This document shows positions 470-32,000 of a DNA stretch of 32,000 nt, piece after piece. The stretch covers positions 330,001-362,000 of the forward strand of contig NC_009925.1 in the NCBI RefSeq assembly GCF_000018105.1, written 5' to 3'. The DNA is from Acaryochloris marina MBIC11017. GTDB lineage: Bacteria; Cyanobacteriota; Cyanobacteriia; Thermosynechococcales; Thermosynechococcaceae. The translations under genes were made by a program, and so were the position numbers. Every line of letters begins with the position of its first letter. Position 1 is the first letter of the stretch. The notes below the pieces were generated by a model. That model made no database searches, had not been told where the DNA came from, and was given only the letters and a program-made list of their open reading frames with translations.

Positions 470-1843
470 TTAGGTTTGGCTTAGAGAAGATTGAAAGTTC
501 TGTTGATTTTTCAAAATCTGTAAGGAAAGAGAAAGCGTCAGGGTAGCCATGTAAACCGTGAGGGAGGTCCACAGCAGATGATTACTTTGGTAATACCAAC
601 CCGCGATCGCAATCGGTGCATAGCCAATTCCCAGCGCCGTCAACGCAGAATTTCGAAGAATAGCGCCCTCTTTGAGACCAATAAAATATCCTTCTAATAC
701 GAAGGCTACCGCTGTTAAACTCAGTAGCGGTACCAACCAGATCACATAGGTATGGATGGAATAGCTGACTTCTGTATGGCTGGTCAATAGTCCAAACACC
801 GTCACTGGAAACAGAACGGAAAGAACTGCAAAAGGCAGGGAGATTAGCAGTCCATGAACAATCGAGGTATAGAGAATTGGCATCATCAATTCTGACTCCC
901 CTTTGCCCTTAAAGTTGCCAACGAGGGTCTGAGTCGTGAGCCCAACACCATTCACCGTGAACTGGCTTAAAAAGGCGATTTGGAGCATCAAACCATTTTC
1001 CGCCAGGATAGTTGTGCCCAAGGTGGTGCTCAAGTTGGTGAAAATGGCATAGGCCGAAATTAAGGCCACAAAGCGAATTAGGATATTCCCCTTGAGCAGC
1101 AGGGTGGATTTGAAGGCAGCGACATCCCAGACCTGTTTTAAGGCAGCAGGCACCCGAGCCCATTCGATGCTGGAGACCACTGCGACTAAAGCTACTCCCA
1201 GGGCTAAATATTGGCTAAGGGCTGTTGCGAGTCCTGCCCCCATGCTGTCCCAACCCCAGCGGTTAATCATCAAATAGTCCAGGAGGACATTGGAACCGTT
1301 ACCAACCAGTGAAATAATTAGGACAATCCGGTTCATTTCCCGCCCCAAGAACCAGCCAATCAGCACAAAGTTAAGCAATACGGCGGGGGCTCCCCAGATG
1401 CGGGCATTGAAGTAATCGAGCCCTGCGGCTTCAATTTCTGGAGAACCGGATAAGACCGCAAACCCCAGACGTTGCAAGGGATATTGCAGGATAAGGATGA
1501 GGATGGCTACTGCGATCGCAACCATGCTGCTGCGCAATCCAGCCAACAGAACCTCTTGATGGTTCTTCTCACCTTCCGCTTGGGCTGTAATAGCGTTGGT
1601 ACTATTTCTAAAGAACTTGAGGATGCGGTAGAGGTAATCGAAGAGAACGCTACCCAAGATCACCCCAGCTAGGTGGCGAATATCGTCGAGATGTCCCAGG
1701 AAGGCCGTATCAAACAAACCCGCCAGGGGCACCATCATATTCGATAGGGCACTCACAACCGCGAGCTGATAAAAGCGAGGGAGAAAACTTCTATAGTGAG
1801 CCGGGATTGATAAGCCCATACTTACCTTTTCTAGCATCCTCAA
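470..1843 (-). CDS. MATE family efflux transporter (DinF-like), polytopic membrane protein
   Basis: The 457-aa ORF is hydrophobic throughout. Its N-terminal region (LSNMMVPLAGLFDTAFLGHL...NAITAQAEG) is typical of MATE/DinF proteins. The true start may be an internal Met. Confidence 0.8.
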   Translation of the reverse strand: MRMLEKVSMGLSIPAHYRSFLPRFYQLAVVSALSNMMVPLAGLFDTAFLGHLDDIRHLAGVILGSVLFDYLYRILKFFRNSTNAITAQAEGEKNHQEVLLAGLRSSMVAIAVAILILILQYPLQRLGFAVLSGSPEIEAAGLDYFNARIWGAPAVLLNFVLIGWFLGREMNRIVLIISLVGNGSNVLLDYLMINRWGWDSMGAGLATALSQYLALGVALVAVVSSIEWARVPAALKQVWDVAAFKSTLLLKGNILIRFVALISAYAIFTNLSTTLGTTILAENGLMLQIAFLSQFTVNGVGLTTQTLVGNFKGKGESELMMPILYTSIVHGLLISLPFAVLSVLFPVTVFGLLTSHTEVSYSIHTYVIWLVPLLSLTAVAFVLEGYFIGLKEGAILRNSALTALGIGYAPIAIAGWYYQSNHLLWTSLTVYMATLTLSLSLQILKNQQNFQSSLSQT

Positions 1844-2199: not shown

Positions 2200-4383
2200 A
2201 TGTCTATCAGCCGCAGAAACTTCTTGTTATTTATGGGCGCAGCAACCACCATGGTGACCTGCAATGCCTCCGCAAATAGACCCTACCGTTCGTCCACAGC
2301 TACAGAAGCAACGATTTCCTTCAAACCCGTTCGGGTCCCTATTCCCCTGGACATTGAAGGGCTATCCCCAGAACAGCAAAAGCAAGCCTACAGTACCTAT
2401 CAGGTCATTGATGATTTGGTCCTGCCGGAAGGCTATGTCTATGAAACCATTGCCGCTTGGGGAGACCCGGTTGGCGATTCTCGGTTTGGCTACAATAATG
2501 ACTTTGTCTCTTTTGTAGAGACAGCACCAAACTCAGGTTATCTATCGATCAACTTCGAATATATTAGCGGTAAAACCTGGATGCAGACCTATGAGCAGGT
2601 TTTAGGCAAGTCTCTCCCGTTTGATCAAGTTCGAGCCGCTATGGGACAGGAGAAAATTGATGCTTTTGGCCTACCCGCAGACGATCCCCTCAAGCAACAA
2701 ATTGAAGCGATTGCCAAGGAGGGGCTGATTGATCAAGGTATTGGGGTGATCGCAATCCAATCGAAGCAAGGTAAATGGATGCGCCAGTCTTCTGCACAAG
2801 ATCGACGAATTACTGGAATTTCCGGTTTGGAAGATGGTCACTATTTAAAGGCAACCGGACCCGGAGTGGCGGTGTTTACAAAGCCCAAGAAGCGGGGCTA
2901 CGACGATAATTTGGGCAGCCGCATTATTGGCACCTTCCAAAATTGTGCGGGTGGGACCACCCCTTGGGGGACCATCTTGAGCGCCGAAGAAAACTTCCAA
3001 GACCAAGTCCCCGAACCCGTGATGGCGGATGGCTCCTCTTTTCCCCCTTCCCATACCCCGTTTGAACTGACGGAAGATAAGGTGGATGGTCGGGGAAATC
3101 CCTTTGGTCTGGCTGGGAATAAATATGGCTGGATGGTAGAAGTCGATCCGAGTAATCCCAAGAACTATGGCATCAAGCATACTTGGCTAGGGCGGTATCG
3201 CCATGAAGCTGTTGCAGTGAATGCTATGGAAGGTCAGCCTTTGGCCGTGTATTCGGGATGCGATCGCAGGGGCGGTCATCTCTATAAATTCGTCAGCACC
3301 GGCAAAGTTAAAAACCCCACGGACAAAGCCAACTCCAAACTCCTGGAGAAAGGCATGCTGTACGGTGCCCAATTGAATGCCGATGGTACGGGTCAATGGA
3401 TTCCCCTGAAAACCAGCACTCCCATTAACCCCATCCTCCCCAGTCAGGTTCTAGGCGAACCTGACTCTAGCCTGGTTACTTTGCCCAACCCCGATCGTCA
3501 GGAAGGCGGCTACATCGACGTCACTAGCGATCAAGACGCCATATCCTTCCAGCAAACCTTTAAAACCTTGGGCGATCTCTACGAAGGCAGCGCCAACGAA
3601 CGCCAAGGGGCGATCCTGGTTGATGCTCACTATGCAGCCAATGCGGCTGGAATTACTTGCTTAGCCAGACCCGAAGACACCACCTTTGATCCAGAACAGA
3701 AGGCGCTTTTTGTGGCCTTTACTTCCGGTGGGCCTGGGGGAGATGGCGGTCCCGACCAACAAATCTTTCAAGGCCCCAATGGAGAAGCGCCTTACGAATA
3801 TGGGTGGATTATGAAAATCATGGAGGCAGACGATAATCCAGCCGCCATGCAGTTCCGGTGGGTGATGGTTGCCGTAGGTGGAGAACCCGCCCAGGATGGC
3901 CTTGGGTTTGCCAATCCAGACAACCTAGAAATCGATGCTCAAGGCAACCTGTGGATGGTAACGGACATGTCCACCAGTAAGCACAATCTGGCCATTCCCA
4001 ATCGTAGTGGTGTTGATCCATCCAAACTACGGGGCATTTTTGGTAATAATACAGCCTGGTACCTACCCTTGATGGGTACCCACGCGGGTAAGGCCTTTCC
4101 TTTTGCGATGGGTCCGATGGATAGTGAGCTTTGTGGGTTATGTCTACACCCGAACCAAAAAGCTCTCTTTTTAACGGCCCAACATCCAGGTGAAGCAGGC
4201 GGTATCCGGCAAAAAATGGCGTCTGAAACCCGAGAAATTGCCATACTGACCACAGATGGTCAGGCATTTCTGCAGGCTAGGGAGGTGCCCATCGGTTCCA
4301 ATTGGCCGGAAAAAAAAGCAACGGACCCGCCTAAACCTGCTTTGGTTGCTATCTATCGTTCGGATGGCAAAGTCTTGATTTAA
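2200..4383 (+). CDS. phoX: PhoX-family (DUF839) secreted phosphatase with a twin-arginine signal
   Basis: The N-terminus SRRNFLLFMGAA fits a Tat motif. PhoX/DUF839-like blocks are present: WGDP, NCAGGTTPWGTILSAEEN, GWMVEVDP, RPEDT and NPDNLEIDAQGNLWMVTD. Confidence 0.75.
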   Translation: MSISRRNFLLFMGAATTMVTCNASANRPYRSSTATEATISFKPVRVPIPLDIEGLSPEQQKQAYSTYQVIDDLVLPEGYVYETIAAWGDPVGDSRFGYNNDFVSFVETAPNSGYLSINFEYISGKTWMQTYEQVLGKSLPFDQVRAAMGQEKIDAFGLPADDPLKQQIEAIAKEGLIDQGIGVIAIQSKQGKWMRQSSAQDRRITGISGLEDGHYLKATGPGVAVFTKPKKRGYDDNLGSRIIGTFQNCAGGTTPWGTILSAEENFQDQVPEPVMADGSSFPPSHTPFELTEDKVDGRGNPFGLAGNKYGWMVEVDPSNPKNYGIKHTWLGRYRHEAVAVNAMEGQPLAVYSGCDRRGGHLYKFVSTGKVKNPTDKANSKLLEKGMLYGAQLNADGTGQWIPLKTSTPINPILPSQVLGEPDSSLVTLPNPDRQEGGYIDVTSDQDAISFQQTFKTLGDLYEGSANERQGAILVDAHYAANAAGITCLARPEDTTFDPEQKALFVAFTSGGPGGDGGPDQQIFQGPNGEAPYEYGWIMKIMEADDNPAAMQFRWVMVAVGGEPAQDGLGFANPDNLEIDAQGNLWMVTDMSTSKHNLAIPNRSGVDPSKLRGIFGNNTAWYLPLMGTHAGKAFPFAMGPMDSELCGLCLHPNQKALFLTAQHPGEAGGIRQKMASETREIAILTTDGQAFLQAREVPIGSNWPEKKATDPPKPALVAIYRSDGKVLI

Positions 4384-6660: not shown

Positions 6661-7452
6661 TCAAATTTCTTTTTTTAGAAAAATAAATAGATTATTTTTC
6701 AAATAAAATGGGAGAAAACTATCAATAATTTTCATAATAAAAAAAAGGAAACTATTGTTAAAGAAATATGCAGGTTCAGAATTAAAATAATAAGTATAAT
6801 TTTCATATTTATCGTCTGGGAATAGTATATCTATTTTTCTAGCAGAATTCATCCTATACATAGTTGGGAAAACATCTATTTCATTTCTCAAAGGTTGTAC
6901 ATACTTAAGAATTTGCTCATGCCAAGAGTTTCTTATTAGTTGAATCAAAATATAAACATAGTTATATTTATTTGGAGTCCTAGCACATATCCAACCTCCT
7001 GCCTTAAGAATGCGAGTAAACTCCTGGGCAATTTCATTTTCATTTTCAATATGTTCAAAAGTAAAATCTGATATTATTAGGTCAAACGAATTATCGTCAA
7101 ACGGAAGCTTTTCGCCAATCTTTATTACTACTTTTTCATCTACTGTTGGATTATCATATATTGCTTCATCTATATCACAACCGACAATTTTTTTAACTTT
7201 CCCTTGTAAATCATGAAGTGATTTTCGATAAGGACAAGAATAATCTTCTTTCCAGGAGCCTCTGCCAGCACCAAAGTCAAGCACTACCATTGAATTATTC
7301 AACAGAGAGTTTATCCTTGAGTAAAACTCAACTGTTCCATCAACTGAGGTATAACCGCTTATATTAAATTCTGGATAATGGTTCCCAATTATTTTTGAAC
7401 GCCTGCTAGCAGCTCTAGTTCGACATTGAGTGATTATATTTGTTTTACGCAT
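6661..7452 (-). CDS. Class I SAM-dependent methyltransferase
   Basis: Motif I is VVLDFGAGRGSW, followed by FDLIISDFTFEHIENE and LKAGGWICARTPN. Confidence 0.8.
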   Translation of the reverse strand: MRKTNIITQCRTRAASRRSKIIGNHYPEFNISGYTSVDGTVEFYSRINSLLNNSMVVLDFGAGRGSWKEDYSCPYRKSLHDLQGKVKKIVGCDIDEAIYDNPTVDEKVVIKIGEKLPFDDNSFDLIISDFTFEHIENENEIAQEFTRILKAGGWICARTPNKYNYVYILIQLIRNSWHEQILKYVQPLRNEIDVFPTMYRMNSARKIDILFPDDKYENYTYYFNSEPAYFFNNSFLFFIMKIIDSFLPFYLKNNLFIFLKKEI

Positions 7453-7468: not shown

Positions 7469-8311
7469 TTAAGTTCTCATGAAATCATTTACCTTTCCGC
7501 CCCTTCTTTTTGTATCTCCTAAGAATTGCCAACAATCGTAACCTTTAAGAATTTCTGTGGGAACAGCTTTAGGCTCTATTTTTTTCAATAAAGCCTGCCC
7601 ATAACAATCTACAGTAAAATCACAAAAAAACTCAAAGTCATAGCTCCATAACTTTTCAATTAATTTCTTATCTGAGTCTGAAAGAACTAAATCTTTATTT
7701 TCTAGATTCTTATTTAGGTGCTGTAAATTAAAATCTAAACCAATTGATGATTTTAGGTAAGAACAATATTGATAAAGCCTTTCAAAAACACCTAGAGAAT
7801 CACCAATAAATTCTCCATTAGGGTTAATAAAAGCGTAAGACTGGTAAGGAAGTAAGTTTAGATCGCTTAGCCTCATAGCAAACTCGCTAAAACTATCAAT
7901 ATTTCTTTTAAGAAGCATATCTCACTCTGGATATATACGACAATGAAATAGATAATGTCTATAAATAGATAGTGACCATTCATATGGATTACGGATAATC
8001 CCAAACTTAAAATATTGCGAAAAAATTGTTTTAGGAAGTAACAATGAAGCTTGATAGAGTGTTGTATGAGGCCTATGCAAAAAATCATAGAATGGATATC
8101 TGTATGCAAAATCCCCAATTCTTCTGATCATCTTAAATAAAAGACTTTGTTCAATTGGTCGAATTTCTTTTGTTAAAGCTCTACGAATACTTGTTCCACC
8201 TGTCTTAGGATTATGTACAAAAATAAATCTTTTTTTGGTTGATAAATTCATCGCTAGCAACTTTCTGTTAACGTTAATAACCTTATAAAAGAAATTATAA
8301 AGTAAAGACAA
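7469..8311 (-). pseudogene. Family-2 sulfotransferase interrupted by one in-frame TGA
   Basis: ORFs 7922-8311 and 7469-7918 are in the same frame (...RIYPE-TGA-D-MLLKRN...). The N-terminal part has the PAPS 5'-phosphosulfate loop FIFVHNPKTGGTS and the IIRNPYEW block. The combined length of 843 nt equals that of the intact paralog at 24781-25623. Confidence 0.7.
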
Positions 8312-14479: not shown

Positions 14480-15375
14480 TTACTGCTCAAAGTTATCACC
14501 GCTCAAAAACCATTTAGAAATTATTTTTAGATTGAATAATTTATATACACCCCGAATATCAGTACCTAAGACTTTCTTTAAATCAAATACTTCAGAGGTT
14601 TTTTTTCTTATTCTAAGGACCTTGGATACAACATTCCGAACCAAAACTTTCCATAGTGTAGGCGAGATTGATTTTATCGGTACCAAACCATCAATTGATT
14701 CAAGTGTATTCAGCAAAGTTTTATGAGAAAAATGGCTAATATGAGAATGTGGTATCCATTTTGGGAAAGCAGGTTCAAGAGGGTTTACCATATGACTATT
14801 AAAATTATCGGGCATTATTAAGAGATAGCCACCAGATCTAACATATTCAGCCATCTTCGAAATAAATTTCTTCGGATTTTCAATATGCTCGATAACTTCA
14901 AATGAGGTTACTAAATCAAATCCTTTCTTATGAAGGTTCGATAGCTGAAAGTTGTATTAATGACATTCTGATGTAACACCTCGCATGCATAGGTAGATTC
15001 TTCTCTAGATAATTCGACACCTGAAACCTTTATTTTACTATAACGTTTGACTAGCTTTTCTAGCAGAAGACCATAACCAGTTCCAACGTCAAGTAATGAA
15101 TCAATTTTAGTTATATCTAAAAGCGTTTCTAGCGCAATTAGGTTGACTTTAGAATTAACAATTTGGCCTTGTAGATGTCTATTACTACCAAAATTATCCT
15201 CATAATAAGCTTTTAAATCATGTTCAGATAAAATCTTACTTGAAAACTTAAATTTGCAGTCATTGCACTTGACCACTGGTATTTCAGGAAATTGAATATA
15301 ATCTTCCAAGTTACTTGACTGACAAAGTGAGCATTTACTCCGAGCAATTAAATTTCTTGATAGAGTTTTATTCAT
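14480..15375 (-). pseudogene. Zn-ribbon + class I SAM methyltransferase, frameshifted
   Basis: ORF 14911-15375 has CSLCQS...CNDCKF and motif I LLDVGTGYGLL. The family continuation (GFDLVTSFEVIEHIENPKKFISKMAEYVRSGGYLLI) is in another frame that is open from 14956 downward. The lesion therefore lies within 14911-14956. Confidence 0.75.
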
Positions 15376-16826: not shown

Positions 16827-18596
16827 TCAACCCAAGTTTGATGTGATGAGTGGTAAATTATTCTGATATAACAAAGAATCTATATTCCTTTCTTTGTTTA
16901 ATATTTGTGTTGGTATGGGATTAACCTCGTTAAATATTGACAAGATAACTTCAGACTGTAATTTTTCCATATGTTTTCCTGTCAATGATACATTTTTGAG
17001 CGACATCTTCGATCTCATTATCCACCTAGGCAATAAGTCTTGGCATGCAATTTCCAGCAAAGATCGATCCCAGGACATTAGATAGAATGCTTCTGGAATT
17101 CTTAGTAAAAGTTCAAGAAGTCGATGGTCAAATAACGGTAGTTTTGTTTCTATCCCAACTATTCGTTCCATTTGATCAATGTCCCGCAATAGAAACGGCT
17201 CTACATATCCAAACAAATCGTTCCAAAAGATTCTTGGTAAAAATTGTGTAAGTCGACACGATGGGGGCTTTGGCCAATCAAGAGCCTGTAAATTGGTCGT
17301 TTTTAACTCTGCATTAGTGGCAAGGCGATGGCCTGCCAAGAGGAGATGCCACGCATCTAACCAAGGAGCATCTTCAGCCATAGAAAATAAACGGGAATTC
17401 ATTACCTGCATAACCTTTGGCCACAATTCAAAAACTCTTAATCTGGCAAGTCGTGCCATCAAAACTAATCCACTTAGGTGAACTCCTAATGCTTTTTGAC
17501 TTTCAAAACCAAACATTATCGTTTGGACACCTGATCGCTTTAATGCATTTCCAATCACACAACTATGAGCAGCTTGGAAACTTGGTAATTCTAGAGTCTT
17601 AATAGCCTTAGTAAAAAATTCGATATATTCTTTACTACTGATATAAATTTCTTGATGAAATGCTCCGATGTGGTTTGCAAAATCCGTAATACCATTTTTT
17701 GGTATAGAAGAGTCTTGGATATGTACTGAGAATGTTTTAATTGGCTTAGAACTATGCTGAGCAGCAAGAGCTGCAACGATTTTGGAGCTGGAATCGTTCG
17801 TGAGCAAGCAATTAATAGGTCTATCACTGGAAATATGTTCTTGAATTACTCGCTCAAGTTCTTGCCGAATCAGCTTCACCGCATCACGACGTCGTTTGAT
17901 AGGTAAAGGAGTCCAATCTGGTCGGGGAGACGGGGGCCACCAACGCAAAAAAGTTGGCGAAGAGTCAGGTCCAATTCTCATAAGGGTTCCAGGAGGAAGA
18001 GGGTAAATCCCCTCACCTAATTCACCTTCCATTGGATAGTATCCAAAACTAAGATAATGGCTAACACAGGAAGGTGCTAGTTTAAGCTTATCCTGGAATA
18101 ATTGACGTACATTAGAAGAAAAACACAGCTTCGTGTCTTGTTTTTGCCACCAAAGAGATTTAACACCAAGGCGATCTCGAGCCAGTAGCAACTGTCTAGT
18201 CTCAGTATCGTAGAAAGCAAAGGCAAAGACTCCTCTCAGGTCAACTAAGAGTGAAGTATTTCGTTGAGCTAAGCCTTCAACCAGAGTTTCAACATCACTA
18301 TTTCCCTTCCAGATCTGATTCCGAAGTCCTCGACGAATTTCTAAATGATTATTGATGTGTCCACTAAAGACAAGTACATACCGACCACAATGGGACCGAA
18401 TAGGCTGAGATGCAACATCGTTCTGTTGATTTGATAAGTTTCGACTGTATTGAAGCCAGCAGTAGCGATCTTGACTAGTCCAAGAAGATTCTCCAGGAAT
18501 CCTACTCTTGTATGATGAATTCTTACATGATGAATAAGTTAAAGGTGATGAATGGACTTCTTCCTCTATAGATAAACAACCCGTAATCTCAGACAT
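16827..18596 (-). CDS. Asparagine synthase (AsnB)-like protein with degenerate glutaminase and PP-loop motifs
   Basis: AsnB-like blocks are present: LARDRLGVKSLWW, TFSVHIQD and LLRDIDQMERIVGIETKLPLFD. The start is taken at ATG 18596 (MSEITG...), 5 nt after the upstream stop; the ORF-track start at 18638 would overlap that gene by 37 nt. Confidence 0.8.
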   Translation of the reverse strand: MSEITGCLSIEEEVHSSPLTYSSCKNSSYKSRIPGESSWTSQDRYCWLQYSRNLSNQQNDVASQPIRSHCGRYVLVFSGHINNHLEIRRGLRNQIWKGNSDVETLVEGLAQRNTSLLVDLRGVFAFAFYDTETRQLLLARDRLGVKSLWWQKQDTKLCFSSNVRQLFQDKLKLAPSCVSHYLSFGYYPMEGELGEGIYPLPPGTLMRIGPDSSPTFLRWWPPSPRPDWTPLPIKRRRDAVKLIRQELERVIQEHISSDRPINCLLTNDSSSKIVAALAAQHSSKPIKTFSVHIQDSSIPKNGITDFANHIGAFHQEIYISSKEYIEFFTKAIKTLELPSFQAAHSCVIGNALKRSGVQTIMFGFESQKALGVHLSGLVLMARLARLRVFELWPKVMQVMNSRLFSMAEDAPWLDAWHLLLAGHRLATNAELKTTNLQALDWPKPPSCRLTQFLPRIFWNDLFGYVEPFLLRDIDQMERIVGIETKLPLFDHRLLELLLRIPEAFYLMSWDRSLLEIACQDLLPRWIMRSKMSLKNVSLTGKHMEKLQSEVILSIFNEVNPIPTQILNKERNIDSLLYQNNLPLITSNLG

Positions 18597-18601
18597 ACGT
18601 T

Positions 18602-19789
18602 TTAACCTACTGCAATTCTTATTGCATCTTGGTAACATCGTTCATATTCAAGTAAAGAATGCTCAAGCGAGAAACGTCCTGCATGGTTGATCCTTTCTTT
18701 TTTCTTAGCCTCTTTTAAATCAGAAGGTATTGTTAAAACTTCTTGCAGCACATCGGCAGCTTGTTTAGCCCAATTCAATTGCTCATCTTCAGAATCAGGG
18801 TAGGTAGAGATGTAATTTGCAACATCTCCACCGACTTCAGTCATAGGTTGAGCATTCGTTGTAAGAACTGGACATCCGCAAGATAAAGCTTCTAACACTG
18901 GCCAACCAAAACCTTCAAATAAGGAAGGAAAAACAAGAGCTTCGGCTAGACTATACAAGGATTGCAATTGATTAAATGAAACATTCTGAAGAAAAATTAC
19001 CTTTGCACTCAACTGTGGATGATTATTGAGCCAAGCTAATAATTCTCTCGTAGGCTTACTAACCATTACCAAATAAATTTCTGGTTCCTTAAAAGCCAAC
19101 TGCTCAAATATTTGTAAAACACCTAATCGATTTTTATACCAGTTGCTGCCTATGTGTAAAATAAACTTTTTCCCTTCGCCACCTGTCCACAACCCCTTAA
19201 GCTCTGACCAAGAATTATGTGAAGGGAATGGCGTAAAAGGACTATTCAAAGGATTATAAACGACTTTTGAAAGCTCTGCAGGTGCTGGCAAAAAACGATG
19301 TAAATCAGTTTGAGTTGCATTTGATACTGAAACAAAACATTTCCCTTGCGAAAATCCCCAGCGAATCAGTTGCTGATACAAACGTCCCGTAAAACTAGGT
19401 TTATGGTGCAAAATTTCTCCCAATGAACCTCGTAATGCTAAGAAGTCATGACAATGGATAACATGGGGGCGGTTTTTGATAAAAGGTACCCATATGCCTA
19501 AAGCTTGGTCGCTTAACACCATCAAACTATTTGGTGGTAAATTTCTTTTACACCAGAGGATCAATAGAGGAAAAATCAGATATTGATCAATATAACCCAA
19601 CCACTTAAATAAGAACGGAACTGGTTTCCCTAAGGCTCCTACTATAACGGGAGGTTTCCAATATTCAACTGTATGGCCTCTCTTCTCCATTCCTTCAGCT
19701 ATAAGAGCAGAAAACTTCAACATACTTTTGCCATAATTGCTGTAGAGAGAGTAATGGATTAATAGGATAATATGCAACGGTTGAGTCAT
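18602..19789 (-). CDS. GT4-family glycosyltransferase
   Basis: The E-x7-E region reads FPSLFEGFGWPVLEALSCGCPVLTTN. The start abuts the upstream gene stop with no gap. Confidence 0.9.
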   Translation of the reverse strand: MTQPLHIILLIHYSLYSNYGKSMLKFSALIAEGMEKRGHTVEYWKPPVIVGALGKPVPFLFKWLGYIDQYLIFPLLILWCKRNLPPNSLMVLSDQALGIWVPFIKNRPHVIHCHDFLALRGSLGEILHHKPSFTGRLYQQLIRWGFSQGKCFVSVSNATQTDLHRFLPAPAELSKVVYNPLNSPFTPFPSHNSWSELKGLWTGGEGKKFILHIGSNWYKNRLGVLQIFEQLAFKEPEIYLVMVSKPTRELLAWLNNHPQLSAKVIFLQNVSFNQLQSLYSLAEALVFPSLFEGFGWPVLEALSCGCPVLTTNAQPMTEVGGDVANYISTYPDSEDEQLNWAKQAADVLQEVLTIPSDLKEAKKKERINHAGRFSLEHSLLEYERCYQDAIRIAVG

Positions 19790-25744: not shown

Positions 25745-27544
25745 TTAGTTAGTTTTAGCCAAAGAACGAAATGTATGTGAATTTTCTAAAAGAGAATTAT
25801 AGGTGCCATTATCAACCAACTTACCGAAAGAAAATTCATAAATTAGATCACATTTTTCTACTGTTGAAAGACGGTGAGCAATCATAATAATCGTTAAATT
25901 ATCATTACCTGATAATAATGTACTAATAAATTCTCTCTCAGTCTTATTATCAAGAGCACTAGTTGCCTCATCTAACAATAAAACTCGTGCTCCCTTATAC
26001 AAAGCCCTAGCAATTCCTATTCTTTGTCGCTGTCCTCCACTTAGGCCTATGCCCCTTTCACCAATAGTTTCAAAATATCCAAGCGCTTGATCCTCTATAA
26101 AGTTACTAACTTGTGCCTTTTGAGCTGATTCCTTAACTCTTAACAGATCTATCTCCTGCATAGGAACCCCAAATGCTATGTTTTCGGCAAAACTAGCATC
26201 ACTTAAATAGATATACTGAGGAACATGGGCAATATAATGTCGCCAAGCCTTCATCAAATCAATATCTTCAGATGCATTGTATCCATCCAAAATCAAGCCA
26301 CCCTTAGAAGGCTTCAACAATCCCATAATCAGATCAACAATAGTACTCTTACCGCTACCCGTTGGTCCAACAAAACCAACCCGACTCCCGATCGGAATCC
26401 TTAGATTTAGATCCTTGATTACCCAATCTCCAGCACTTTGGTATCGAAACCAAACGTCCCTCAGCTCAATATTTTTCTCAAGAATTAAATCTTCACTTTT
26501 TGTAGAAATAAGTGAGTCTAAATTTTCCCTATGCTGGGTTCCTTCTAAATAGGGCAGCAGACGCTCTATAGATGAGGAGTTGGATTTGATGGATGCCAAC
26601 GCCACAAATACATTTTGCAGCGGTTGTAAGATTTTGTAAGCTCCAAGCGTAAAGGAACCCAAGACAGGAATGATATTGCTAATATTTTTACCTTGAAGTA
26701 CTAGAATAAATACTAATCCTGAAATCAATAAAATTGTGATTCCTTCAATTAAATATCTTGGAATTTGAGCCTTAAAATTAATTCTTGCGACCGCTTGACG
26801 AGATATATTTACGGACTGACTATAGTCATTTAAGAAAACACTCTGGCTATCATCCAACAAAATATCTCGAATCCCACCCAGACTTTCTTGCAAAGTCTTA
26901 ATCGACCGTTGGTGACTTTCAATTCTTTCTTTTCCTTCCCTATAAAATGTTCCTCTAGTTAAGCGATAGATAATAATATAACTGCTGCCGAGAATAAATG
27001 TCGCAAATAGGGTTATATGTGGTGAGATCAAAACTAAAGTTAGTCCCAAACTTAAAACAATTAATGAACTTAAAATTATATTTAGTCCTGATAGAATAAC
27101 AGTTCTAACTTGATTAACGTCTTCTGTTAAGCGAGTGATAACCTCACTACTATTATGAGTTATATGCCATATATAAGGTCGCTTTAGCAGATTATCAAAA
27201 CTACTTATAGATAGATCAGCAGCAATATTTGCCGTTAGCTTTTGTTGAACCCATATTGTGTAAATCCTAACAACCGTGCTAAATACGACAATAACGAGAA
27301 AAATTATTCCCATGCCAAGAATAATATTATTTTCATGCATTCTAGACAACCCAGAGAAACCAATAGGCAAACTCTCAATTATTTTTTTAGGATTCAGAAC
27401 AGCTTGCAGAAATGGATAAAGAGAGCCTAAACTTCCAATCTCTAAAAAAGAGGATAGGATACTCAATGCCAGAAAAAATAGTAACTCAAGACGGCGATTT
27501 TTACTGAGATAAGGCAATAAAGAAAAAGCAGAAAAATTCATCAA
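25745..27544 (-). CDS. Fused permease/ATPase ABC exporter (MsbA/PglK/McjD architecture)
   Basis: An N-terminal domain of about six TM segments is followed by Walker A GPTGSGKST, signature LSGGQRQRIGIARAL, Walker B LLLDEATSALD and the H-loop IAHRLST. Confidence 0.9.
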   Translation of the reverse strand: MMNFSAFSLLPYLSKNRRLELLFFLALSILSSFLEIGSLGSLYPFLQAVLNPKKIIESLPIGFSGLSRMHENNIILGMGIIFLVIVVFSTVVRIYTIWVQQKLTANIAADLSISSFDNLLKRPYIWHITHNSSEVITRLTEDVNQVRTVILSGLNIILSSLIVLSLGLTLVLISPHITLFATFILGSSYIIIYRLTRGTFYREGKERIESHQRSIKTLQESLGGIRDILLDDSQSVFLNDYSQSVNISRQAVARINFKAQIPRYLIEGITILLISGLVFILVLQGKNISNIIPVLGSFTLGAYKILQPLQNVFVALASIKSNSSSIERLLPYLEGTQHRENLDSLISTKSEDLILEKNIELRDVWFRYQSAGDWVIKDLNLRIPIGSRVGFVGPTGSGKSTIVDLIMGLLKPSKGGLILDGYNASEDIDLMKAWRHYIAHVPQYIYLSDASFAENIAFGVPMQEIDLLRVKESAQKAQVSNFIEDQALGYFETIGERGIGLSGGQRQRIGIARALYKGARVLLLDEATSALDNKTEREFISTLLSGNDNLTIIMIAHRLSTVEKCDLIYEFSFGKLVDNGTYNSLLENSHTFRSLAKTN

Positions 27545-27698: not shown

Positions 27699-29000
27699 CT
27701 AAGCGGTAATTGTCTTTTGAGCCTCAGAGTCTAAATCTTGATTTACTAGCTTTCCAGTGAAAATAAGTTTTCGCAATTTGCTCTCAAACTGACTCAATAC
27801 CTGCTCTCGGTCCCAATGGGATAAAGCATATTTTCGACCCTCACTACCTAACTTTTGTCTTTTTTGATGATGATTTGCCAAATCAGCTATTGCCTTAGTC
27901 AACTCTTGGACCTCTTCTGGAGGAACGGCAACACCACAGGTTTGTACAATATTAAATACTTGAGTACCAGGATAGGCCGTTGCAATAACAGGCCTTCCAG
28001 AGGCTAACATCGCTTTTAGCTTTGAAGGTAAAACCAAGTCTCCAACACCTGATGCTTGAGGAAGCAAATGAATATCAGCCATATTTAACAACGCATTGAA
28101 ACGTTCTGATGGCTGTAAATCTAAGAAATAAATGTTTGACAAACAACGGGCTTGCTCAACCAGCACCCTTTTCATTGGACCTTGTCCAGCAATTACAAAT
28201 ACGATCTTTTCAGTGCATTCAAGAATTCGAGCAGCTTCTATAAGGATACTTATTCCTTGCTTAGCACCTAAGTTACCAGAATAGAGGCATACAATCTTGT
28301 CTTCTGATATACCTAATTGTGCACGGTACTCATTTGTTTCATTTATAGGATGGATCGCATTACAATCTACCCAGTTTGGGAAGTATACACACTTATCTAG
28401 CTTTACTCCTTTCTGATAGAGCCGCAAGCTCATTTGAGCACTGATGGTTGAAACAACCTGTACTTTCTGCATTAACCAGTTTTCAATAGATCCCACTAAT
28501 ACAGTTAATCGAGGAAAGCTTGGCAATAAACCCAGAGAGAAACCTGCATCAATTTCAAAGTCTTGTACATGTAGCCAAACTTTAAACTGAAATATTTTTG
28601 ATGCAATCAAAACTGCTGGTAAACAAAAGATCGGAGGTTCTACCAAGAAGATGATGCTCTCAACTCCAGATATCTTTTTTTTGAAAATCAGCCAAATAAA
28701 CTGTATTGCACTTGAAATTGCAAAAGAAAACAAGTGCAATATGCGATTAATACCGGAAAGTTTTTTAGGCAACCAAACTGGACAACGATGGACCGAGACC
28801 AAGCCATAGTGATTACACGAGTAACGCCAGCCAGAAAACCCTGGACTTAATTCCCAACTAGGGTAATAAGGGGGGGCACATACAACATCAACATCATAAC
28901 CCTCATTTACCAGCCAATTCGCCATCTCGGTATTATACTTTCCAATTCCAATCAACTCAGGGAAATAGTTCAGACTGTAAATCAAAATATGTGGCTTCAT
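27699..29000 (-). CDS. WcaI-like GT4 glycosyltransferase
   Basis: The N-terminus MKPHILIYSLNYFPELIGIGKYNTEMANWL is characteristic of the WcaI family. Confidence 0.85.
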   Translation of the reverse strand: MKPHILIYSLNYFPELIGIGKYNTEMANWLVNEGYDVDVVCAPPYYPSWELSPGFSGWRYSCNHYGLVSVHRCPVWLPKKLSGINRILHLFSFAISSAIQFIWLIFKKKISGVESIIFLVEPPIFCLPAVLIASKIFQFKVWLHVQDFEIDAGFSLGLLPSFPRLTVLVGSIENWLMQKVQVVSTISAQMSLRLYQKGVKLDKCVYFPNWVDCNAIHPINETNEYRAQLGISEDKIVCLYSGNLGAKQGISILIEAARILECTEKIVFVIAGQGPMKRVLVEQARCLSNIYFLDLQPSERFNALLNMADIHLLPQASGVGDLVLPSKLKAMLASGRPVIATAYPGTQVFNIVQTCGVAVPPEEVQELTKAIADLANHHQKRQKLGSEGRKYALSHWDREQVLSQFESKLRKLIFTGKLVNQDLDSEAQKTITA

Positions 29001-29195: not shown

Positions 29196-29546
29196 ACAAC
29201 CCACCTTTCTAAAGCGCAATAAACCTAAAGAAAAGACTTAAAAAGAACATCGGCTTATATCAAACAATATTCAGACTGCTGAGCTAAAATGATATTTAAA
29301 AAAATAATCTAATATTATTTCAGAAAAATATTACTCAAGAAAAGCTATATAGAAGACAAGCTAACTATGAAAAGTAGGCTTACAAATTTTTGTCTAACAG
29401 TTTCTACTAGAATTTAAATTCTTCGAAATATATAGTTTTAGACTAGGACTAGCATTGAATAACTATATTTTATTTTTATGGGTTTAAATTTAATTCAATC
29501 TTACTTATCTCACGAAAAATTATAGCTGTAGATCAAGCAATAATCT

Positions 29547-30719
29547 TTATTTTGAGAAAGGCATCGTCATAACTTTAGCTCGGTAGAAGTTATCAAACAA
29601 GTAGTACCAAACAAAGTCAAATAAAACCTTCTGCTTATAGTAAAAGCTTTCAAGCATCTGCATCTTCATAAATTGAAAGCGGATTTTCATGCTAAACGTG
29701 CGTCTAGATACAGGACTATTTTTTAAGCTCAGATCAATTTGACCAATCAAATCAGATATAATTTGATCAGTCAAAATCATATTTTCAATTGAGTCGGATA
29801 AATCAATATCAAAGTAGCTTTTACATAGAGCTAGGCCTAGTAGTAATCTACGCCTGCATCGAAGTTCCTGAGACAGCTTCAATACATCAGGCCAGTTAAG
29901 AGTCGGGTTATTATCAACTAAATTAGCTACATCATAAATCGCTTGAAACTTTTTCCATCCATCTTGAGAGTTATGGATACACAGAACGTTGAGTAAATCC
30001 TCAGTTTTTAGGCTTTGGTAGTATTGCTGTTGTAGCTTTATTTTCAACAATCGATCAGAAAAAATTTCAAAGGATTCGGGACAGTATTTTGAAATATTCT
30101 GGTGTAAATCAATAAATACATTGCAGTCTTGCTTCCTTTTCCCAAAAGATATTTCATGAGCAATAAAATCATAGTGAAAATTCTTAATTATCTTGTAGAG
30201 AATCGAATAATTCCATCCTTGGTTTACATAAGGAGAACGATAATTAAGACTAATCAGTAGATTTACACAACGTTTAAAGTCTTTTCTTGAAACTAAAAAA
30301 TCTAAGTCACAGAACTGTCTAGCATGAGTACCTCCGTAAGCAATCTGCGCAAGTGTTGGCCCTTTGAAAGGGATCACATCAATATCATGGGTTTCAAACA
30401 GGTTCAATAACTGTTTAAGTTCTTCCACATGTAAAGTATTTTTTAAAGTGATTTCACAAGAATACTTTCTAAGGCTAGCAAGCAGATAATCTGGAATATT
30501 TTTATGAGTATGTTGCTTAAGACATTGGTATACGGGTGGTATTACTTTATGGAACTTAGTTAACCTCAAAAAATGGTGCCAATCAATACTATGATGATCT
30601 AGTATCGCATTAATTTTAAAATACCTAGTTTGTGATTTTAATTGAAGACAGGATAAAAGCAGCTTTTGCTCATTAGAGAATTCAGTAGAACTTCTTTTTT
30701 TCAGTTTTATATAAATCAC
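29547..30719 (-). CDS. NTP_transf_5-like (uncharacterised nucleotidyltransferase family) protein
   Basis: The block IPFKGPTLAQIAYGGTHARQFCDLDFLVSRKDFKRCVNLL fits the remembered family pattern (KG..L....Y.....R...D.D.LV). It is co-oriented with the kinase gene and 50 nt downstream of it. Confidence 0.7.
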   Translation of the reverse strand: MIYIKLKKRSSTEFSNEQKLLLSCLQLKSQTRYFKINAILDHHSIDWHHFLRLTKFHKVIPPVYQCLKQHTHKNIPDYLLASLRKYSCEITLKNTLHVEELKQLLNLFETHDIDVIPFKGPTLAQIAYGGTHARQFCDLDFLVSRKDFKRCVNLLISLNYRSPYVNQGWNYSILYKIIKNFHYDFIAHEISFGKRKQDCNVFIDLHQNISKYCPESFEIFSDRLLKIKLQQQYYQSLKTEDLLNVLCIHNSQDGWKKFQAIYDVANLVDNNPTLNWPDVLKLSQELRCRRRLLLGLALCKSYFDIDLSDSIENMILTDQIISDLIGQIDLSLKNSPVSRRTFSMKIRFQFMKMQMLESFYYKQKVLFDFVWYYLFDNFYRAKVMTMPFSK

Positions 30720-30769: not shown

Positions 30770-31654
30770 CTAACAAAGAGGCATTAATCTTCGATGATAT
30801 CCTTGTTCATGAATCTGGATTTTCTCAACGGTTTTTGATATTGAATTTAGATCGAGAGGTCTTGTAAGTAAATAGACTGGTACCTTCTTAAGCAGGGCCG
30901 TACATTGCTCAAAGTGAAGCTTCACAAACTGAGGATGAATTAGTTCCTTAGTTGCTCGAGAATTTTTTAAAATCTCTAGAAATGCTTGCTGTGGATTAAG
31001 CTTGATAATAGAAAATTCCTTCCCTTGATTAAGGACATAGATACTTGATAAGGGTAGGGCAGGAAATTCTTTTTGAGGAAGAAGGTGAACCTTCTTAGAA
31101 GAGTAGCCGTATATTGATTTAAGCTTATCAGGCTGATGTCCCATTGCAATAGCGGAATCAGGCCATAACTTGATCCGGGGGATGCTGGGTAGAACAGTTG
31201 GAAAATCGGAAGCAAATTGAATGGCTAATACATCGTCAGTAATTACCGAGCAATCATGATGATGGAATGCTTCTGCCAAAGTGGACTTGCCAGCCTTCGA
31301 ATGACCTAAAAATGCAGTAGCAGCATTTTGTAATACAACACAGCTTCCATGCAAAACAAGCTGACCTTGTTGGCGAAGAAGAATAGTAAAAATTGGCCCA
31401 TAGAGTATGGATCGAACTAAACCGATTTCGACATTAGCAAAAGGCTCAATGACTATTTCTTGTCCTTTATACACAAGGAAACGAAGAATGTTCGATATTC
31501 TACCTCGAAAACAGAAGCCAGCATCATGCTTATGATGGTATGTTGCTAATTTATCAATCTTTAGTACTACATCTGGGCGTCCATCTGCTTCAACAAGCTC
31601 AGGCAAGTAAATATCTGACTGAATACAGAAACCAAACACCGAATAGACTGGCAT
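30770..31654 (-). CDS. HPr kinase/phosphorylase-like (HprK-related) P-loop kinase
   Basis: The block LHGSCVVLQNAATAFLGHSKAGKSTLAEAF...VITDDV is a Walker A in the HprK_C-like context. The N-terminal Y-x-V-F-G-F-x-I-x-S pattern is typical of HprK-related kinases. Confidence 0.8.
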   Translation of the reverse strand: MPVYSVFGFCIQSDIYLPELVEADGRPDVVLKIDKLATYHHKHDAGFCFRGRISNILRFLVYKGQEIVIEPFANVEIGLVRSILYGPIFTILLRQQGQLVLHGSCVVLQNAATAFLGHSKAGKSTLAEAFHHHDCSVITDDVLAIQFASDFPTVLPSIPRIKLWPDSAIAMGHQPDKLKSIYGYSSKKVHLLPQKEFPALPLSSIYVLNQGKEFSIIKLNPQQAFLEILKNSRATKELIHPQFVKLHFEQCTALLKKVPVYLLTRPLDLNSISKTVEKIQIHEQGYHRRLMPLC

Positions 31655-31687
31655 ATCAAGTTTATTGATATAGTTAATAGCTTGATA

Positions 31688-31722
31688 TTAAAGAGGAAAG
31701 AACTAATTTCTTCCCTCTTTAA
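31688..31722 (-). promoter_or_regulatory. 15-bp stem-loop between the peptide gene and the kinase gene
   Basis: The minus-strand RNA reads UUAAAGAGGGAAGAA / AUUAG / UUCUUUCCUCUUUAA, with one G:U pair and otherwise perfect pairing. It begins 14 nt after the peptide stop codon and has no strong U-tail. Confidence 0.5.
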
Positions 31723-31735
31723 TGGTAAATTCTGC

Positions 31736-31900
31736 CTAACCGTCATCAAGTTCCGGAGCAATTACAGCTGCAGATTCAAAATCATCATCAACTTCTTCAA
31801 ATTGTTCTTCAAACTCCCTAGCTTCATCATCAAATTCTTGTGTGATACCTACTAAAGAACCAAAGGCAGTCAACTTAGGTGTTGAAAATTTCCGTTTCAT
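31736..31900 (-). CDS. 54-aa precursor-like peptide (lasso-type leader motif + polyacidic tail), absent from the ORF track
   Basis: My own translation is MKRKFSTPKLTAFGSLVGITQEFDDEAREFEEQFEEVDDDFESAAVIAPELDDG. The ORF has an ATG start, GGAG 10 nt upstream and a TAG stop. It shares the strand of the kinase gene and lies 81 nt upstream of it. An open frame this long is unlikely by chance in AT-rich DNA. Confidence 0.6.
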   Translation of the reverse strand: MKRKFSTPKLTAFGSLVGITQEFDDEAREFEEQFEEVDDDFESAAVIAPELDDG

Positions 31901-32000
31901 AATTCAAAAGCTCCAAATAGCGTGTGGATTAGTTAAGGCATGTTCAACGAGAATGAATTAAGTTTAGTAATTCGCAATCTATCGAAAAATTTATATCAAA

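Follow-up and report, generated by a model that had tools for sequence, protein, structure and literature searches.

A putative lasso-derived cassette of a peptide, a kinase and a nucleotidyltransferase in an exopolysaccharide island of Acaryochloris

What does a gene for a lasso-type precursor peptide produce when no lasso cyclase is found beside it? This question is raised by a short open reading frame (ORF) of Acaryochloris marina MBIC11017, located near the end of the window, that is, the whole stretch of 32,000 nucleotides analyzed here (contig NC_009925.1, positions 330,001 to 362,000). An earlier note, made from the sequence alone, had placed this ORF at positions 31736 to 31900 of the minus strand of the window, and it is present exactly as described. 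It encodes a peptide of 54 residues followed by a stop codon, MKRKFSTPKLTAFGSLVGITQEFDDEAREFEEQFEEVDDDFESAAVIAPELDDG, comprising a basic leader (residues 1–21, MKRKFSTPKLTAFGSLVGITQ; positions 31838 to 31900) and a polyacidic tail (residues 22–54; positions 31739 to 31837). Genes for an HprK-like serine kinase and for a nucleotidyltransferase of family PF14907 follow on the same strand. The explanation that we favor, and regard as reasonably probable, is that these three genes are the descendant of a lasso peptide cluster, devoid of a RiPP recognition element (RRE; RiPP, a peptide made on ribosomes and modified after translation) and of a cyclase, which would make a linear phospho(glyco)peptide.

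The start of the peptide gene is unambiguous since a stop codon is located two codons upstream from the ATG. A Shine-Dalgarno sequence, GGAG, is present 10 nt 5' of this ATG (31911 to 31914, minus strand). A word-indexed protein search with the peptide returned an identical protein from Acaryochloris marina, annotated as hypothetical, and no match besides the peptide itself. Exhaustive HMMER searching of 1.84 billion representative sequences recovered two Acaryochloris-type clusters and two spurious repeat proteins, and nothing else. The literature searched contained no paper connecting Acaryochloris with a peptide-kinase-nucleotidyltransferase cassette. Because HMMER had yielded no relatives besides Acaryochloris-type peptides, relatives were sought via the downstream kinase. 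A profile scan of genome contigs gave zero matches when seeded by the single kinase, and was successful when seeded by a nine-sequence alignment. Six additional loci recovered through the kinase have the same flanks, which contain genes for a FemAB-like protein, a PAS histidine kinase, a response regulator, and an epimerase. The flanking proteins were 92–100% identical across loci, except the FemAB-like protein (69–98%), indicating that the six further loci belong to Acaryochloris strains. The seven Acaryochloris loci are designated L001 (which runs past the window end), L018, L020, L022, L023, L024, and L025.

An ORF of 56–67 residues occupies the equivalent site in all six other loci, and the peptide gene is thus intact in 7/7. 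Interruption of the ORF beside an intact kinase and nucleotidyltransferase, which the earlier note had named as evidence against its proposal, was found in none of these relatives. Pairwise dN/dS ratios of the peptide ORF ranged from 0.07 to 0.50, with dS near saturation, and resembled the values obtained for the kinase. The GGAG sequence was detected at the same spacing upstream of the ORF in all seven loci. Between the peptide stop codon and the kinase start codon, the transcript is predicted to fold into a 16-bp stem-loop (31687 to 31723, minus strand; centroid energy of –22.8 kcal/mol; z = –3.9 for the folded 96-nt region), and a hairpin of differing sequence occupies the same gap in five to six of the seven loci. 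Together, the intact ORF in seven loci, the dN/dS values at near-saturated dS, the conserved Shine-Dalgarno sequence, and the positional conservation of the hairpin indicate that the peptide gene is real and under selection. Rfam, tRNA, and intrinsic-terminator scans gave no match at the locus, and no U-tract terminator was called for the hairpin at 31687–31723, which is a candidate attenuator or mRNA-stabilizing hairpin. A second hairpin, of 7 bp (31653–31671, minus strand), overlaps the start codon of the kinase gene, for which no Shine-Dalgarno sequence is visible; these two features may keep translation of the enzymes low relative to that of the peptide. An ORF of the opposite strand (31682–31855) was regarded as a mirror image of the real peptide gene.

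The N-terminal portion of the peptide had been assigned to the lasso leader pattern F-x-x-P-x-L-x3-G-x5-T, with Phe replacing Tyr, and this assignment was upheld by profile comparison. Residues 1–28 matched the NCBIfam family NF033528 (lasso_cyano) with an E value of 4.7e-7 and a score of 29.7 bits, which falls just below the curated cutoff of 33 bits; the six orthologues scored 19–28 bits, and genuine precursors 45–62 bits. The motif reads F5..P8.L10...G14.....T20-Q21 in the window peptide. Alignment of 19 peptides (7 from Acaryochloris and 12 true lasso precursors) revealed that M1, P8, G14, and T20 are invariant, and the seven Acaryochloris peptides share the N-terminus MK..F..P.LT.FG.....[IL]T[QT]E. 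On these sequence comparisons, the resemblance of the leader to lasso precursors is beyond chance. Cleavage after Q21 had also been predicted. In agreement with this proposal, the Thr at position –2 and the junction at residue 21 coincide, in the alignment, with the site where leader and core meet in true lasso precursors, but no B2 protease was found at the locus.

The bipolar distribution of charges that had been described was confirmed, as residues 1–21 contain four Lys or Arg and no acidic residue, and residues 22–54 contain 16 Asp or Glu and one Arg. The tail harbors 15–17 acidic residues in all seven Acaryochloris peptides. It ends with a block, DD[FI]ES[AI][AG][VI][VI]xP[ED]L, that is present in 7/7 peptides and holds the sole conserved Ser of the tail. 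In the window peptide, this residue is Ser43 (codon at 31772 to 31774, minus strand); the tail has no other Ser, Thr, or Tyr, and its last residue is Gly, both as previously stated. The C-terminal residue is Glu or His in the orthologues; none of the peptides ends with the C-terminal Ser of paeninodin-type substrates.

Homology to lasso precursors extends beyond the leader, an aspect that the earlier note did not contain. The beginnings of the cores align (A-F-G in true lasso precursors; E-Y-G and E-F-D in Acaryochloris). The residues at the ring position, E/N-D, are also aligned, and are retained in four orthologues and lost in the window peptide. Toward the C-terminal end, the motif S-x(1-3)-[GA]-[VIQ]-[VI]-x-P is common to the seven Acaryochloris peptides and to seven of nine cyanobacterial lasso precursors; it was found in 1e-4 to 1.5e-3 of shuffled sequences, the motif having been defined post hoc. 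Most of the more distant kinase homologues (26–42% identity) are encoded beside peptides of the type MKKAYNAPQLTIHGSVENITNAFGNPAINDTF...GSVDGVVVPKP. Since the leader, the first core residues, and the C-terminal motif all align with those of true precursors, the peptide is, as judged from these alignments, descended end to end from a lasso precursor whose core middle became polyacidic. The Glu at core position 8, which had been considered to have a ring-competent spacing from the atypical Glu at core position 1, provides no information on ring formation in a tail in which 16 of 33 residues are acidic, and no cyclase, B2, or RRE was found at the locus.

Hydrophobic or small residues of the tail had been reported to follow an unbroken +4/+3 alternation (F23, A27, F30, F34, V37, F41, A44, A48, and L51), as in an amphipathic helix or a coiled coil. 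The run is indeed unbroken in the window peptide, and a run of nine a/d positions occurred in 7.5e-5 of 200,000 tail shuffles if Ala was counted as hydrophobic. If only F, V, I, L, M, W, and Y were considered, the run decreased to four (p = 0.065). Structure prediction of the peptide alone (AlphaFold2, single sequence) returned a helix at residues 24–44, but with low confidence (pLDDT of only 56). The maximum a/d run was three in the six orthologues, which contain Gly or Pro within this stretch. Thus, the leader motif and the acidic tail are conserved at homologous loci but the heptad pattern is not: a coiled coil was ruled out as a family feature, and the hydrophobic heptad run is a peculiarity of this strain.

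The kinase gene (30770 to 31654, minus strand) encodes a protein of 294 residues with an HprK-like/PEPCK-fold P-loop serine kinase assignment. Family scans produced a weak match to TIGR04355 and a faint match to PF27840 (ScmC), and a sequence search of the PDB returned nothing meaningful. Only the fold search was informative: the AlphaFold2 model (pLDDT of 94.4) matched PEPCK and HprK/P in Foldseek. Across 45 homologues, the P-loop residues G122-K123-S124-T125 do not vary, and neither do H102, D141, and K162. The nucleotidyltransferase gene (29547 to 30719, minus strand) encodes 390 residues matching PF14907 (NTP_transf_5) with 204.5 bits, and the protein harbors the motif G-x(n)-D-L-D at residues 129–140. 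With their catalytic motifs kept, both enzymes look intact and are predicted to be competent. Two 24-nt tandem duplications were observed, at 29729–29775, in the 3' part of the nucleotidyltransferase gene, and at 29284–29330, in the 547-nt gap that separates this gene from a downstream gene for a glycosyltransferase of family GT4.

Both enzymes are related to those of lasso clusters. The kinase shares 38% identity with its counterpart in a genuine lasso cluster from Calothrix and 36–42% with kinases from lasso clusters of cyanobacteria; for the nucleotidyltransferase, identity with the N proteins encoded in true lasso clusters of cyanobacteria is 27–31%. Kinase homologues with 26–42% identity were recovered from Calothrix, Scytonema, Brasilonema, Elainella, Anabaena, a cyanobacterial genome of the ENA, Rhodothermales, Rubricoccaceae, and Sideroxydans. 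In a neighbor-joining tree, the Acaryochloris kinases formed one monophyletic group, with the kinases from lasso clusters of cyanobacteria as its sister; the outgroups were lasso-associated too.

Lasso machinery was searched for with the B1 (PqqD/RRE), B2 (protease), and C (cyclase) proteins of the genuine Calothrix cluster as tblastn probes, this reference having been verified by NCBIfam models (two lasso_cyano precursors, PqqD, B2, and a cyclase at 991 bits). The cyclase gene adjoined the kinase gene in 10/10 outgroup genome loci, most of which also contained B1 and B2. Pfam lists of two further outgroups (L026 and L027) included PqqD, Transglut_core3, and Asn_synthase. In total, a cyclase was encoded beside the kinase in 12/12 outgroups, mostly with PqqD and B2. 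As a side observation, the lasso cluster of Calothrix sp. HK-06 (L011, 2514–13892) has two precursor-kinase-exporter sets around a single B1-B2-C set.

The outcome was different in Acaryochloris. The sole tblastn match in the window and in L001, L018, L020, L022, and L023 was an AsnB-like gene, 13 kb away, whose product was 21% identical to the probe. The Pfam lists of L024 and L025 contained no PqqD, B2, or cyclase. Overall, no PqqD/RRE, B2, cyclase, or dedicated exporter was found within approximately 10 kb of the module in the seven loci; for PqqD, B2, and cyclase, the negative result (Pfam, NCBIfam, and tblastn) also covers the entire 32-kb window and 10 kb past its end. No peptidase family was detected by Pfam and/or NCBIfam among the 26 window ORFs of at least 100 residues (a scan that left out three ORFs nested in the ORFs at 2200–4383 and 16827–18638), nor among the upstream ORFs of L001. 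A hidden RRE in the kinase, the nucleotidyltransferase, or a 140-residue ORF of the locus was rejected by hhalign comparison with a B1 profile (probability of at most 3%), and an RRE fused to the kinase was rejected since the N-terminal domain of the kinase model is all-beta. Considering the kinase tree, in which sisters and outgroups are lasso-associated, loss of B1, B2, C, and the exporter D in the Acaryochloris lineage would be the simplest history.

The setting of the module in an exopolysaccharide island is a second aspect that goes beyond the earlier note. The gene order Wzc, peptide, kinase, nucleotidyltransferase, and GT4 is kept in every variant among the seven loci. The Wzc-type chain-length determinant and tyrosine autokinase is encoded upstream, past the window end. 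The WcaI-family GT4 glycosyltransferase (27699 to 29000, minus strand; NF007640, 506 bits) follows the nucleotidyltransferase in 7/7 loci. It is followed in the window by an ABC exporter (25745 to 27544, minus strand) that matches the NCBIfam models of MsbA and PglK. This transporter was rejected as a lasso D exporter since only its ATPase half aligns and the gene is not conserved across strains. Further downstream, the window contains genes for sulfotransferases, several glycosyltransferases, and a 520-residue protein without family match; genes for GT4, for an ABC protein or a Wzx-type flippase, and for sulfotransferases are found downstream of the module in all variants. The island has a low GC content (29–40%, for 45–50% in the flanks) and extends from approximately 5800 to 32000, and on to L001 5816–7622 past the window end.

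Protein identity between strains was 58–81% for Wzc, 39–64% for the peptide, 50–64% for the kinase, 40–66% for the nucleotidyltransferase, and 21–94% for the first glycosyltransferase. Comparison of L001 with L018 indicated mosaic recombination, since the cassette (64–66% identity for the peptide, kinase, and nucleotidyltransferase) is more diverged than both of its neighbors (80% for Wzc, and 93–94% for the glycosyltransferase and the ABC protein). The extensive variation of the cassette among strains is suggestive of a function in conflict or at the surface of the cell. Given that the module keeps its place after Wzc and ahead of the first glycosyltransferase gene in this hypervariable island, we consider that the product probably acts in, or gets further decorated by, the polysaccharide pathway. 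An ORF of 140 residues, rich in Cys (CPIHxCYLDS...WCEECQ), is also present in all Acaryochloris loci, for example at L022 6265–6687 and, 5' of Wzc and outside the window, at L001 approximately 7017–7439; it matched no Pfam or NCBIfam family and is not RRE-like.

According to the explanation that we favor, the Acaryochloris cluster would have retained only three genes, for the peptide (A), for the HprK-like kinase (K), and for the PF14907 nucleotidyltransferase (N). An excess of the peptide would be produced from a strong ribosome binding site of its own, with a putative effect on expression of the hairpin that precedes K and N. As suggested by homology and conservation, K would phosphorylate a Ser of the tail, possibly several times, like PadeK, PsmK, and LppK, which phosphorylate one Ser, often repeatedly (PMC8498205, PMC6993621, PMC13381572). 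The likeliest site would be Ser43 in DD[FI]ES, which is the best candidate because it is the only hydroxyl residue of the tail in this strain and the only conserved tail Ser, and because it is located inside a motif common to true precursors. N could then add a hexose or another group onto the phosphate, like PsmN, which is needed for addition of one or two hexoses onto the phosphate of the Ser phosphorylated by PsmK (PMC6993621). The product would remain linear, as suggested by the absence of B1, B2, and C. Kinases of the paeninodin type accept linear precursors in vitro, with no described need for an RRE (PMC8498205).

Several observations weigh against this explanation. Phosphorylation, the acceptor residue, and the product of the nucleotidyltransferase are steps that we infer. 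No activity was detected for LppN, the nucleotidyltransferase of the only study on LPPs (PMC13381572), and the nucleotidyltransferase step is therefore the weakest link. The leader, including the Thr at position –2 that is recognized by the B2 proteases of lasso systems, is under purifying selection despite the lack of an RRE or protease nearby; this conservation fits either an unfamiliar reader (K, N, or a glycosyltransferase) or lasso enzymes encoded elsewhere. In addition, E-[YI]-G-x-x-x-P-E-D, a ring segment like that of lasso peptides and with Asp as its ninth residue, is retained by four orthologues. A search for lasso cyclases recovered none from Acaryochloris among the best 120 of 6,933 matches, and enzymes could act in trans. 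The AsnB-like protein encoded in the island (603 residues; 16827–18638, minus strand) has a Ser (M15-S16) in place of the Cys nucleophile, like cyanobacterial lasso cyclases (MSGI...). This protein fell below the cutoffs for both AsnB (172 of 267 bits on TIGR01536) and the cyanobacterial cyclase model (70 of 525 bits); its substrates might be sugars, which it would amidate, or the acidic peptide. Finally, the ABC protein is at most a candidate exporter, a Wzx-type flippase being encoded in its place in L022 and L023.

The cassette shares several features with the LPP clusters, which are located in capsule loci of Bacillota, lack a cyclase, and make products of unknown role (Popov et al., Nat Commun 2026, PMC13381572). 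An LPP cluster comprises a precursor with a lasso-like leader, an HprK-like kinase, an NTP-transferase, an RRE, an archaeal-type signal peptidase, and an MsbA-like exporter (PMC13381572). As at the present locus, the precursor contains a lasso-like leader (of the form [Y/W]xxPx[L/V] in LPPs) followed by a variable C-terminal part, and is encoded beside an HprK-like kinase and an NTP-transferase, with no cyclase found at the locus. The setting in an exopolysaccharide or capsule locus, with an adjoining polysaccharide tyrosine autokinase, is similar as well; an MsbA-like ABC protein is encoded nearby in the window, and a Wzx-type flippase instead in L022 and L023.

The two systems differ in other respects. 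Neither a discrete RRE (LppB) nor an archaeal-type signal peptidase (LppS), whose gene defines the LPP family (PMC13381572), was found here. The leader is devoid of the extended motif VLxHQxIxFETxxS and has Phe for Tyr, so that only the xxPxL part is common. The LPP kinase polyphosphorylates Ser3 of the core (PMC13381572); the window peptide has no Ser at this position or elsewhere near the junction, and its conserved Ser lies 12 residues before the C-terminal end. The tail is polyacidic and the host is a cyanobacterium, whereas LPPs are, according to the authors, restricted to Bacillota (PMC13381572). Furthermore, the cassette arose independently, out of the lasso lineage of cyanobacteria, as indicated by the kinase tree. 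By these comparisons, the cassette resembles an LPP cluster yet lacks the features that define the family; nor is it a member of lasso_cyano, since the NF033528 score is below the cutoff and no B1, B2, or C was found at the locus.

Comparison with the cyanobacterial lasso clusters themselves (NF033528 and NF033535; Calothrix sp. HK-06 and Anabaena sp. 4-3) showed homology of the leader, extending to the residues that open the core and to the C-terminal motif S..G-V-V-x-P. The differences are the lack of PqqD, B2, cyclase, and dedicated D exporter at the Acaryochloris locus, the sub-cutoff NF033528 score, the Asp- and Glu-rich middle of the core, and Glu instead of Ala at core residue 1. The Firmicutes peptides paeninodin and pseudomycoidin offer a parallel in the use of an HprK-family kinase on a precursor Ser and a PF14907-type nucleotidyltransferase for hexose addition. 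They differ in that they are phosphorylated on a C-terminal Ser and cyclized, and their kinases are distant, the sole named Bacillus homologue recovered (P0044) being 29% identical.

Production of a true lasso peptide is, in our opinion, unlikely. In this scenario, PqqD, B2, and cyclase enzymes acting in trans, or the AsnB-like enzyme of the island, would cut the peptide after Q21 and close Glu1 of the core onto an Asp or Glu at positions 7–9, the acidic stretch forming the threaded tail. Such a product would account for the invariant leader with Thr at –2 and for the E-[YI]-G-x3-P-E-D segment of four orthologues, in which Asp9 mirrors the A-F-G-x5-D of true precursors. The Ser that the AsnB-like protein has in place of the Cys nucleophile, as in cyanobacterial cyclases, would also fit, as would the 120 matches out of 6,933 covered by the cyclase search, which leave room for action in trans, and the finding that pseudomycoidin can form without B1 and B2 (PMC6993621). 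Against this, B1, B2, and C were not found in the seven loci, whereas a cyclase gene lies beside the kinase gene in 12/12 outgroups. The AsnB-like protein scored far higher on AsnB than on the cyclase model and is only 21% identical to the cyclase probe. Glycine at core position 3 and P-E-D of the ring segment are missing from the window peptide and from those of L018 and L020. We know of no lasso core resembling the Glu-first, half-acidic cores of 33–46 residues found in Acaryochloris.

The polysaccharide setting suggested a different possibility, which we consider decidedly unlikely, that the peptide is an acceptor for the polysaccharide machinery. Following phosphorylation of Ser43, N would transfer the first sugar (or sugar phosphate), which the glycosyltransferases of the island would extend, and the resulting peptide-anchored, phosphodiester-linked glycan would be exported by the flippase of the locus or by the Wzc system. 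The invariable location of A-K-N between Wzc and GT4 in each variant of the hypervariable island points in this direction. So does the occurrence of a true lasso A-K-D-N cluster (L026, 4071–17953) with WecG/GT2 upstream and GT4, a Wzx-type flippase, and a sulfotransferase downstream, indicating that kinase-associated lasso clusters also adjoin polysaccharide genes in cyanobacteria. Precedents are the PsmN-dependent addition of hexose to a phosphate (PMC6993621) and the proposal by the authors of the LPP study that nearby polysaccharide genes could modify the peptide (PMC13381572). This evidence comes from gene neighborhood, and the glycosyltransferases diverge independently of K and N, as illustrated by L001 and L018 (94% identity for the glycosyltransferase and 64–66% for K and N). 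Wzc-dependent exopolysaccharide synthesis is, moreover, normally primed on undecaprenyl phosphate. There is accordingly a slim prospect that the product of the cassette becomes a covalent part of the polysaccharide pathway, Ser43 with its phosphodiester-linked glycan serving as a primer, an anchor, or a strain tag. If so, the peptide with its Ser43-linked glycan would resemble a proteoglycan of bacterial origin, with a lasso RiPP cluster as its evolutionary source, and would explain the presence of kinase- and nucleotidyltransferase-containing RiPP modules in capsule and exopolysaccharide loci of both Bacillota and cyanobacteria.

We regard as very improbable a function of the peptide as a small acidic regulator or decoy that docks onto the kinase via its leader and modulates Wzc or the output of exopolysaccharide, or that binds cations, the helix acting as an interaction surface. 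The strong amphipathic a/d pattern of the window peptide, the helix modeled at residues 24–44, the extreme and conserved bipolarity of charges, and the fact that no export or processing genes are conserved alongside the module are in keeping with such a function; the lack of the heptad in six orthologues and the low pLDDT of the helix are not, and a substrate role is favored by the tight, conserved grouping of A, K, and N and by homology, from end to end, with peptides known to be kinase substrates. A functionless, decaying relic of a lasso cluster, which could be envisioned from the missing ring-forming genes, the sub-cutoff NF033528 score, and several fragmented ORFs in the island, is scarcely credible, as it is largely refuted by the selection analysis (dN/dS of 0.07–0.5 at saturated dS, 7/7 intact genes, and conservation of the Shine-Dalgarno sequence, the hairpin, and the tail motif) and by the catalytic motifs retained in K and N.

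A linear phospho(glyco)peptide made by a lasso-derived cassette, the explanation retained here, would parallel the LPPs, the same outcome being reached independently in a cyanobacterium through simple loss of ring-forming genes. The system would be more minimal than that of the LPPs, with three genes, no RRE or dedicated peptidase found, and a strikingly polyacidic product. Its compactness makes it suitable for studying what the kinases and transferases recognize without an RRE and what the nucleotidyltransferase does, and it permits a test of the functional tie between such peptides and surface-polysaccharide synthesis.

Additional features were noted in the remainder of the window. Within the island, a gene for an N-terminal fragment of a Sulfotransfer_2 protein (129 residues) is followed by an ORF of 149 residues without family assignment (7469–8311, minus strand), and a gene for a methyltransferase fragment (154 residues) is followed by an ORF of 124 residues, again without family assignment (14480–15375, minus strand). 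These apparently split ORFs may be frameshifted pseudogenes. An ORF of 727 residues (2200–4383, plus strand) had no NCBIfam match. Outside the island, the gene at 470–1843 (minus strand) encodes a MATE efflux transporter that scored 613.9 bits on NF041358 (guanitoxin transporter GntT; cutoff of 525 bits).

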